A DNA stretch of 64,000 bases, from the NCBI RefSeq assembly GCF_045037415.1, contig NZ_CP173438.1; one strand, given 5' to 3'. This DNA is from Escherichia coli (lineage in GTDB: Bacteria > Pseudomonadota > Gammaproteobacteria > Enterobacterales > Enterobacteriaceae). Position 1 is the stretch's first letter. Each line of letters begins with the position of its first letter. Shown in pieces: positions 27,140 to 28,115 of the stretch. The notes beneath the pieces are model-generated. The model saw nothing but the letters and a program-made list of their open reading frames with translations. It searched no databases and was not told the DNA's origin. A program made the translations under genes and the position numbers.

Positions 27140-28115
27140 GAGTGGGTTCCGTACTCTTTGTTTAGTGTGATTGTGACAGGCGTTTCACCGCCGTCTGTAA
27201 AGCGTATGCCCCGACAGCTGTATGCATAGCGATAAATTCCAGCAGGCCGGGACGCCGGTCTATTTTGCCCCAGAGTGTCAATGTTAGACTTGACGGACAT
27301 TGTGCAGCGATCTGCTGCTATCCTCCGGCAAAAAACAAAATATACCTTCGTTGCGCCAATGTCACCTTTTCCGCAGTGCAAAAACTGCGTCAGGGAGGAC
27401 GAGGTCGCACATTATAACGATTTCGTAGCAATTGGCAGCTAAATACTGGTCTTATCAGGGAAGATAATCAACAGCTAACATGTAAATAACCTTCAACACC
27501 GTGTAATTTGCAACAAGCCGCACAATTCACGAAATTAGCGCCATCATCGACGGAACTTCTTATAACGTAAGGTGAAACGCTGTAAAGCCAGCCCTGCGAA
27601 GATGGGGGCTGCAATGAGATAATCTTCACAGACCACAAATAATGTAGGGATGCCAGGATCGCGACAAGATAGACGACATTACGCAGCGGTTGCTGGGGAT
27701 TACCCAATTTTCACTGCATCGTCCGGAAAGATGTGAATGCTAAAGCACGCAAAATTAACCGACTGACAATGCTCCGCATTCAATAGGTTTAAGTGGTTAA
27801 TTTGTAATCAAATAAAATCAGATTATTCCCCCCATGGTACCAGAAATCAGTAACAGATTAAGCGTAGCGTCGCCAAGGCAAAGCACCATAAACCTAACAG
27901 GCGACGGAGGCGTATCAATAATGGCTGTTTGGTGGAGCATCAATGCGCATCAATTTATGGTCAGTCGAAATCATGACTTTCCAGTTTGGATGATGTTGTA
28001 CAACTTCATAACCAAGATGTTCGACGAAAGCTGTCCGGCTAACCGCTTTTCCCGTTAACTGATTGAATAATGATTTCAAAATGAGTTCCCTCTCTTATTA
28101 TTCCCTGCTAAATGG

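Follow-up and report, generated by a model that had tools for sequence, protein, structure and literature searches.

What occupies the 976 nt (27140-28115) that separate acuI from accB in Escherichia coli? In the window, i.e. the whole stretch of 64,000 nt analysed here, acuI (28116..29090), accB (26669..27139) and accC (25309..26657) all lie on the minus strand, and the gap between acuI and accB contains no intact gene. The original prediction, that nearly 1 kb lacks a convincing gene and that part of it must be the accBC promoter and leader, is borne out, with the promoter and leader in the accB-proximal part; what it missed is that the acuI-proximal half consists of pseudogene debris. Of 5426 complete E. 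coli genomes, 5420 carry the gap, with an identity of 95-100%. The window, which is from a B2-type strain, matches SK1144 at 100% identity and differs from MG1655 by 29 substitutions and one extra 1-nt deletion at window 27605. We are highly confident that the gap holds the decayed remains of three genes together with a conserved accBC promoter (Table 1). It contains no functional gene, and both ORFs flagged earlier are by-products and not genes. yrdF and yrdE are already annotated pseudogenes, and the locus is in this respect mostly known and ordinary. What is new is modest: the accBC leader derives from aroQ, as a remnant that appears to be unannotated, and the last ~70 nt of this leader are under constraint.

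Table 1. Features of the gap between acuI and accB, listed from acuI towards accB
Feature	Window positions	Strand	Remark
Spacer after acuI stop codon, 36 nt	28080..28115	-	Carries GAGGGA Shine-Dalgarno of truncated DUF1444-like gene
yrdF-type pseudogene, first ~47 codons, TTG start	27937..28079	-	MG1655 yrdF b4697, 3404495-3404637
54-aa chimeric ORF, TTG start at 28079	27915..28079	-	yrdF start running out of frame into msrQ relic
74-aa ORF	27834..28058	+	Antisense to relics; chance ORF
yrdE, msrQ (yedZ) relic, codons ~69-199	27525..27936	-	MG1655 yrdE b4646, 3404638-3405031
Promoter block of (aroQ-)accBC, 70 nt	27402..27471	-	Nearly invariant between genera
First leader part, similar to ancestral aroQ 5' UTR	27301..27401	-	Has conserved GAAGGTATATTTTGTTTTTT block
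aroQ start relic, ATG 27300..27298 and ~6 codons	27280..27300	-	Collinear with aroQ starts, 60-70% over 20 nt
Central 71 nt at site of internal aroQ deletion	27209..27279	-	34-38% identity to aligned aroQ codons
Last 47 nt of aroQ including TAA stop	27162..27208	-	87-98% identity across genera
Candidate hairpin GACGGCG-GUGAAA-CGCC-U-GUC	27175..27195	-	Inside retained aroQ 3' fragment
accB ribosome-binding region	27127..27153	-	Predicted helix UACGGA...UUCGUA encloses accB start codon (27139)

The acuI-proximal half had been regarded as unexplained. In K-12, where acuI is also called yhdH, it is annotated as yrdF and yrdE (NC_000913.3), which map to window 28079..27937 and 27936..27544, respectively, and both were listed as pseudogenes in a 2020 paper (PMC7648144). 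The PGAP annotation of SK1144 has a partial YedZ pseudogene there, at window positions 27544..27930.

The yrdE part is a relic of msrQ. In tblastn searches on the minus strand, K-12 MsrQ residues 101-176 match the relic with 61% identity (E 7e-21), and residues 69-95 and 178-193 align to it in another frame. Two or more frameshifts and several in-frame stops interrupt the relic, which lacks msrQ codons 1-68 as well as msrP; a tblastn search of 26900-28400 for MsrP similarity found none (best E 0.78). When the relic translation is stitched across its frames, it matches the NCBIfam MsrQ profile NF003831 with an E-value of 1.7e-22 over profile positions 69-192 of 212; being only partial, it scores 80 bits and does not reach the 130-bit cutoff for the full length.

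The working msrPQ of E. coli lies elsewhere, after hiuH. Over 292 columns free of gaps, the nucleotide identity of the relic is 74-75% to E. coli's own msrQ versus 59-66% to the syntenic msrQ of other lineages, and E. coli's own msrQ is its nearest relative in 1000 of 1000 resamplings. Between the relics of E. coli and E. albertii, identity is 82%. Together, these relationships suggest that the divergence of the two msrQ copies took place in the Escherichia lineage and is older than that of E. coli from E. albertii. Between K-12 msrPQ and the syntenic msrPQ of a relative (locus L059), homology spans msrP codon ~8 to msrQ codon 195. Each of two E. coli haplotypes has ancestral sequence that is missing from the other, namely msrQ codons 69-100 in the common haplotype and a whole DUF1444-like gene in a minority haplotype; in the spacer of this minority haplotype, the signal of msrQ codons 69-100 is marginal in KCTC 2571 (3 of 300 shuffles), and E. 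albertii has none.

The yrdF part is the beginning of this DUF1444-like gene. The alignment identifies its intact counterpart as a gene of 276 aa in KCTC 2571 and E. albertii, and 669 of the 5426 complete E. coli genomes (12%) contain its full-length segment. In the window, codon 47 is the last one left of the gene and is fused to msrQ codon ~69, and the deletion junction lies at a CACCAAAC microhomology (27934..27927). The spacer that precedes the gene is only one base apart among the window, K-12 and KCTC 2571, with 0 differences between the window and MG1655. The intact protein resembles DUF1444/YtpQ (UPF0354) end-to-end, covering positions 15-254 of 264 in the Pfam model and 15-254 of 267 in NCBIfam NF010189, at scores far below threshold (Pfam i-E 0.01; NCBIfam E 8.3e-5 and 22 bits vs a cutoff of 221). 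Homologues at ~33% identity carry PF07285. By these profile and homologue matches, the intact gene appears to be a distant DUF1444/YtpQ relative; unlike DUF1444/YtpQ genes, yrdF in the window keeps 47 codons only. Close relatives of the intact protein are confined to Escherichia, and a contig scan for the gene matched only E. albertii. The plasmid- or phage-like surroundings of a homologue with 63% identity, which has KfrA- and Aca2-type genes as neighbours, hint at a mobile origin. PADLOC and PHROGs gave no match to the intact protein.

The C-terminal extension of E. coli MsrQ (RSLFNRLRKQ...) resembles the start of the DUF1444-like protein (KSLFNRLTGK...). A derivation of the former from the latter was rejected, with DNA similarity at chance level (916 of 2000 shuffles), and we note the resemblance as an unexplained coincidence.

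From the TTG of yrdF, the reading frame stays open for 54 aa, and the 19-codon minus-strand ORF of the original prediction is the ATG-internal tail of this chimeric frame; the predicted peptide is real, but it lies at 27915..27974 and not near 28075. Could the 54-aa ORF be a live small-protein gene that arose from the truncated DUF1444-like gene and is translated from the acuI transcript? Its GAGGGA Shine-Dalgarno, a few bases upstream of the TTG, and the TTG itself are conserved and the same as those of the intact gene, the frame is open in both the window and MG1655 behind an unchanged 36-nt spacer, and K-12 has transcripts on its strand in the region (PMC7815308 supplements). However, with 7 non-synonymous changes in 54 codons and 2 synonymous ones between the window and MG1655, its pN/pS is 0.90 and, thus, without sign of purifying selection. 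Moreover, its final codons come from the msrQ relic in another frame, a Rho region that peaks within the ORF (window 28056) suggests weak translation, no match to a family was found in NCBIfam, and it is curated as part of a pseudogene. We consider it very improbable that this ORF is a gene. The 74-aa plus-strand ORF exists and is as weak as had been stated: an ORF of at least 74 aa arises in 45% of 1000 shuffles of the region and, in MG1655, the frame is interrupted by a stop codon. We rejected it as a gene.

Divergence of both relics is that of neutral sequence. A comparison of the window with MG1655 gives 4.9% for the yrdF part and 5.8% for the yrdE part, the same level as pS in acuI, 0.046 (these figures leave out the accC row, in which the end of the alignment is an artefact). 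Over the 404 nt upstream of accB, there is 1 difference (0.25%). The original prediction had considered that the gap might be flat, non-conserved and untranscribed sequence. As for the acuI-proximal half, this agrees with the neutral divergence but not with the K-12 RNA data; as for the accB-proximal half, the single difference from K-12 clearly contradicts it. In K-12, a Rho termination region on the acuI strand peaks at MG1655 position 3404518 (window 28056, in yrdF), at a coarse resolution because the score is taken from 800-nt windows, and Term-seq detected an RNA 3' end on the same strand at 3404827 (window 27747, in yrdE), which has a low score and is classed as orphan (PMC7815308 supplements). 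In the simplest reading, acuI transcripts would run into the untranslated relics and be stopped there by Rho.

The same 3' end and Rho-dependent region, both on the sense strand, would also fit a regulatory small RNA or a functional acuI 3' UTR in place of inert relics. Against this reading, the 3' end belongs to the low-scoring orphan class, the divergence of the acuI-proximal half equals the synonymous rate, and 12% of the genomes have a full gene that replaces or extends the region. Furthermore, no Rfam family is present: the sole match in a scan of 26000-30000 with Rfam 15 at E <= 1 was Ysr190, which lies elsewhere (E 0.87, 25 bits vs a gathering score of 66). We give a functional RNA here hardly any credence, and retain inert relics, which acuI transcripts would enter, as our reading of this half.

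The accB-proximal half is different. In its 70-nt promoter block, E. coli shares 93-100% identity with nine other lineages; in the flanks, identity goes down to 42-66%. A promoter scan predicts a -35-like CTGCCA (27438..27433) separated by 16 nt from a perfect -10 TATAAT (27416..27411), together matching the consensus at 10 of 12 positions, and thereby predicts an accBC start near 27404 and a leader of ~265 nt. An accBC start has reportedly been mapped ~313 nt upstream of accB, which would place it near 27452 and not at the ~27404 predicted from the TATAAT. The block also contains a palindrome, CTGATAAGACCAGTAT (27458..27443), which we take to be FadR-like from its resemblance to the FadR operator consensus. 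The acc operons have been proposed as targets of FadR control (PMC11602165).

The origin of the leader that follows this block becomes clear from the gene order in other lineages. In 8 lineages, retrieved via their MsrQ proteins, the order is acuI-msrP-msrQ-(aroQ)-accB and, in full, csrD, acuI, msrP, msrQ, aroQ (not in Citrobacter) and accB-accC; the source labels include Citrobacter enshiensis, Klebsiella aerogenes, Atlantibacter hermannii and Enterobacter bugandensis as well as Franconibacter, Kosakonia, Buttiauxella and Pseudescherichia-like genomes. The order acuI-msrP-msrQ-(aroQ)-accB recurs in metagenomic loci. Among 95 metagenomic accB loci with enough flank, 69 have a full aroQ and 23 have none, and the aroQ-less loci share nearly the same 3' boundary. 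In the aroQ-bearing genera, the promoter block is followed by a 5' UTR of ~105 nt, a gene for a 150-aa type II dehydroquinase (PF01220), 22 nt and accB.

Compared with this arrangement, the accBC leader of E. coli is, by alignment, what remains of an aroQ gene that was deleted internally. Its first part is 54-87% identical to the aroQ 5' UTR of the aroQ-bearing genera, with invariant sub-blocks, and includes a second promoter-like pair in the promoter scan, GTGACA-17-TATTTT at 27365..27337. Next to it, the ancestral AGGAG Shine-Dalgarno of aroQ now reads AGCAG. The relative L059 retains the aroQ start in a more recognisable form, GACAAGTCTCACAT compared to GACAAGTTTCACAT in aroQ. For the central 71 nt, local alignment to aroQ does not rise above shuffles in 6 of 7 comparisons; the internal ~110-130 codons of aroQ are missing or unrecognisable in the window. 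Clear independent evidence for an aroQ origin comes from the 47-nt piece, which encodes 14 residues and the TAA stop. When K. aerogenes aroQ was compared with the 5426 complete E. coli genomes, 5425 matched, and they did so over nt 407-453 only. The best rows had 95.7% identity (E 8e-11 in a 28-Gb search) and lay in unannotated DNA. No intact aroQ was found in these genomes, none of which covers at least 80% of the gene. At the protein level, AroQ residues 136-150 (the C-terminal 15 aa) match the leader with E ~1e-6 in tblastn. We found no feature annotated at the remnant in the MG1655 record NC_000913.3, and our literature search found no paper that notes it.

A second question is why part of this remnant has been kept. 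In the aroQ-bearing genera, third-codon positions are invariant in 10 of the last 16 aroQ codons vs 25 of 135 codons elsewhere in the gene, and the last ~70 nt are kept also in lineages that have no aroQ gene. The comparison across genera shows that the last ~70 nt of the leader, comprising the aroQ 3' fragment, the hairpin and the accB ribosome-binding site, are under constraint at the nucleotide level. This stretch probably serves accB expression. In other words, a sequence that was conserved at synonymous sites while aroQ was a coding gene, and that was retained after aroQ was lost, is a short candidate element for the control of accBC.

How might such an element act? The candidate hairpin has a folding energy of -10.9 kcal/mol, and 90% of the cells are paired in an alignment of 52 distinct sequences. 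One of its pairs is GC in 37 sequences, AU in 8, GU in 2 and something else in 5, and several sequences carry A.C mismatches. The covariation score is above all 500 shuffles, yet modest, and the terminal pairs are broken in ~30% of the sequences. These data are suggestive of a conserved RNA structure but do not prove it. In the helix predicted around the accB start, all pairs of the consensus fold are invariant and, hence, uninformative for covariation, and the fold of the whole leader is not significant (z-score -1.63). Published data from K-12 place an RNA 3' end that is not Rho-dependent at MG1655 3405373 (window 27202; PMC7815308 supplements). This end lies 63 nt before accB and just after a GC-rich stem into which the 3' part of the central 71 nt folds, and only UUU follows it; a scan for consensus terminators found none on the minus strand within the gap. 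The conserved stretch, thus, combines a hairpin from aroQ coding sequence, an RNA 3' end at -63 and a helix around the accB start. According to a 2024 paper, autoregulation of accBC transcription by AccB itself has been proposed, though AccB is without a DNA-binding motif (PMC11602165). It is conceivable, if quite unlikely, that the last ~70 nt form a cis-acting RNA element that tunes accBC and is possibly the target of AccB autoregulation, in which case the leader would be an exapted aroQ remnant.

Alternatively, the constraint could act on DNA, with the last ~70 nt containing an internal accBC promoter of the extended -10 type, TTTACA ... TGTCACAAT. Both TTTACA (27201..27196) and TGTCACAAT are almost invariant in the 52 distinct sequences, and a DNA element would account for the broken terminal pairs of the hairpin and for the mismatches in 5 sequences at its covarying pair. 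On the other hand, TTTACA is ~20 nt from CACAAT and, thus, outside the usual 16-18, and this promoter is absent from the output of the promoter scan. Nor would it be expected from the double changes in the hairpin, namely G-C to A-U at one pair in 8 sequences and C-G to U-A at another pair in one. We regard an internal promoter as unlikely but worth keeping in view, and return to the last ~70 nt as a constrained stretch that probably serves accB expression.

The gene order in other genera shows that the ancestral arrangement of this locus was acuI-msrP-msrQ-aroQ-accB-accC, and we infer a sequence of three losses from it. In the first, an internal deletion would have removed most of aroQ in the lineage that gave rise to Escherichia and to those relatives that lack aroQ (Citrobacter enshiensis and several metagenomic lineages), leaving the aroQ promoter, the 5' UTR, the start region and the last 47 nt to survive as a long accBC leader. 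In the second, with an msrPQ copy next to hiuH in Escherichia, the acuI-side copy would have lost msrP and msrQ codons 1-68 and then decayed into yrdE. The third loss would concern the DUF1444-like accessory gene, which has acuI on one side and the msrQ relic on the other; in the majority of E. coli, the window among them, a microhomology-mediated deletion would have left only its first 47 codons fused to the msrQ relic, giving rise to yrdF. At present, transcription of accBC would begin afresh at the conserved promoter with its TATAAT and proceed through the ~265-nt leader. As an explanation of the locus as a whole, three gene remains plus one live regulatory region is very probably the best.

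In this model, the longest "non-coding" stretch in the window is gene debris that has already been curated in K-12, and it conceals no hidden gene or RNA. The model also provides an origin for the long accBC leader, which would be the shell of a lost aroQ gene with its promoter still driving accBC, and the locus would record the loss of msrPQ from its ancestral position in Escherichia.

The relics can be compared with known counterparts. In comparison with yrdF and yrdE of K-12, the relics in the window occupy the same locus, have the same boundaries, are 94-95% identical and differ in nothing essential; the window has the common E. coli haplotype. The msrQ relic resembles MsrQ (YedZ; Pfam PF01794), the heme-binding membrane subunit of the MsrPQ periplasmic methionine sulfoxide reductase, in that it matches the equivalog profile, lies in the position that msrQ has in other Enterobacteriaceae and keeps the C-terminus of the 199-aa type, RYKKFR(Q)WWR. 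However, unlike intact MsrQ (~199-211 aa), it has no uninterrupted frame and no msrP partner. In many Proteobacteria, aroQ precedes accB and accC in an aroQ-accB-accC operon and, for instance, aroQ-accBC is one transcription unit in Acinetobacter (PMC10865783). Unlike these operons, E. coli has lost ~330-385 nt of the 453-nt aroQ, a range that depends on whether the central 71 nt are counted as derived from aroQ or not, the aroQ Shine-Dalgarno is mutated, and the remnant is only an untranslated leader. By contrast, the promoter block, the 5' UTR and the start context of E. coli are collinear with those of the aroQ-accB-accC operon, as are the last 47 nt of aroQ and the 22-nt spacer between aroQ and accB.

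An intact acuI-msrP-msrQ cluster lies directly upstream of an accB leader lacking aroQ in a metagenome contig (ERZ507044 NODE-509), and the msrQ gene in this cluster is of the 199-aa type. AccB and AcuI encoded by this contig are 100% and 93% identical, respectively, to the proteins of the window. The source of the contig is a close relative of Escherichia, and its arrangement is that expected prior to the formation of the Escherichia relics. As for the DUF1444-like gene, of which yrdF is the 5' remnant, a homologue with 63% identity is present on a 5.5-kb contig, where its neighbours are KfrA_N, Aca2/YdiL and DUF7352 genes; this setting suggests that plasmids or phages carry members of the family.

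Published K-12 data map a Rho termination region, as well as 3' ends of RNAs, to the acuI-accB interval; one of these 3' ends is inside the aroQ remnant, 63 nt upstream of accB (PMC7815308 supplements). An Rfam match to the Yersinia sRNA Ysr190, overlapping both the accBC promoter and the early part of the leader, scores 25 bits (E 0.87), which is below the gathering score of 66, and is probably due to chance.

Three Logan runs (SRR16960918, SRR16610252 and SRR16610253) yielded a 205-aa protein, P0136, in which AccB residues 1-154 are joined to yrdF from codon 4. Because the 1424-nt contig encoding P0136 is 100% identical to K-12 and its ends close on each other, it indicates a tandem duplication or circle of the yrdF-yrdE-leader-accB segment in some K-12-derived samples.

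Coordinates of features in the interval, its surroundings and the comparison loci
Feature	Location	Coordinates
acuI-msrP-msrQ-accB leader	ERZ507044 NODE-509	2373-5910
DUF1444-like homologue	L012 (5.5-kb contig)	3898-4731
Published K-12 RNA positions	window	27202, 27747, 28056
Same positions	MG1655	3405373, 3404827, 3404518
Ysr190 match	window	27337..27436 (-)
Segment in P0136 contig (1.39 kb)	MG1655	3404506-3405898
K-12 msrQ 3' end	L004 (K-12 msrQ locus)	9990-10058
Region compared with msrQ 3' end	window	28079..28050
Sugar-use block	window	16722..25217

In the window, accC and yhdT are separated by an ~8.5-kb block of eight genes for sugar use, which encode two sugar kinases, a DeoR regulator, a tagatose-bisphosphate-type aldolase, an ABC transporter (three genes) and an aldose 1-epimerase; in K-12, only about 100 nt lie between accC and yhdT.

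The hexapeptide SLFNRL is common to the C-terminal extension of E. coli MsrQ (...RYKKLRSLFNRLRKQVHNKLSV) and the N-terminus of the DUF1444-like protein and yrdF (MKSLFNRLTGK...). DNA similarity between the two compared ends is not above chance. In E. coli MsrQ, SLFNRL is at the exact point where homology to other MsrQ proteins stops, and it is the C-terminal extension that sets E. coli MsrQ apart from these proteins.
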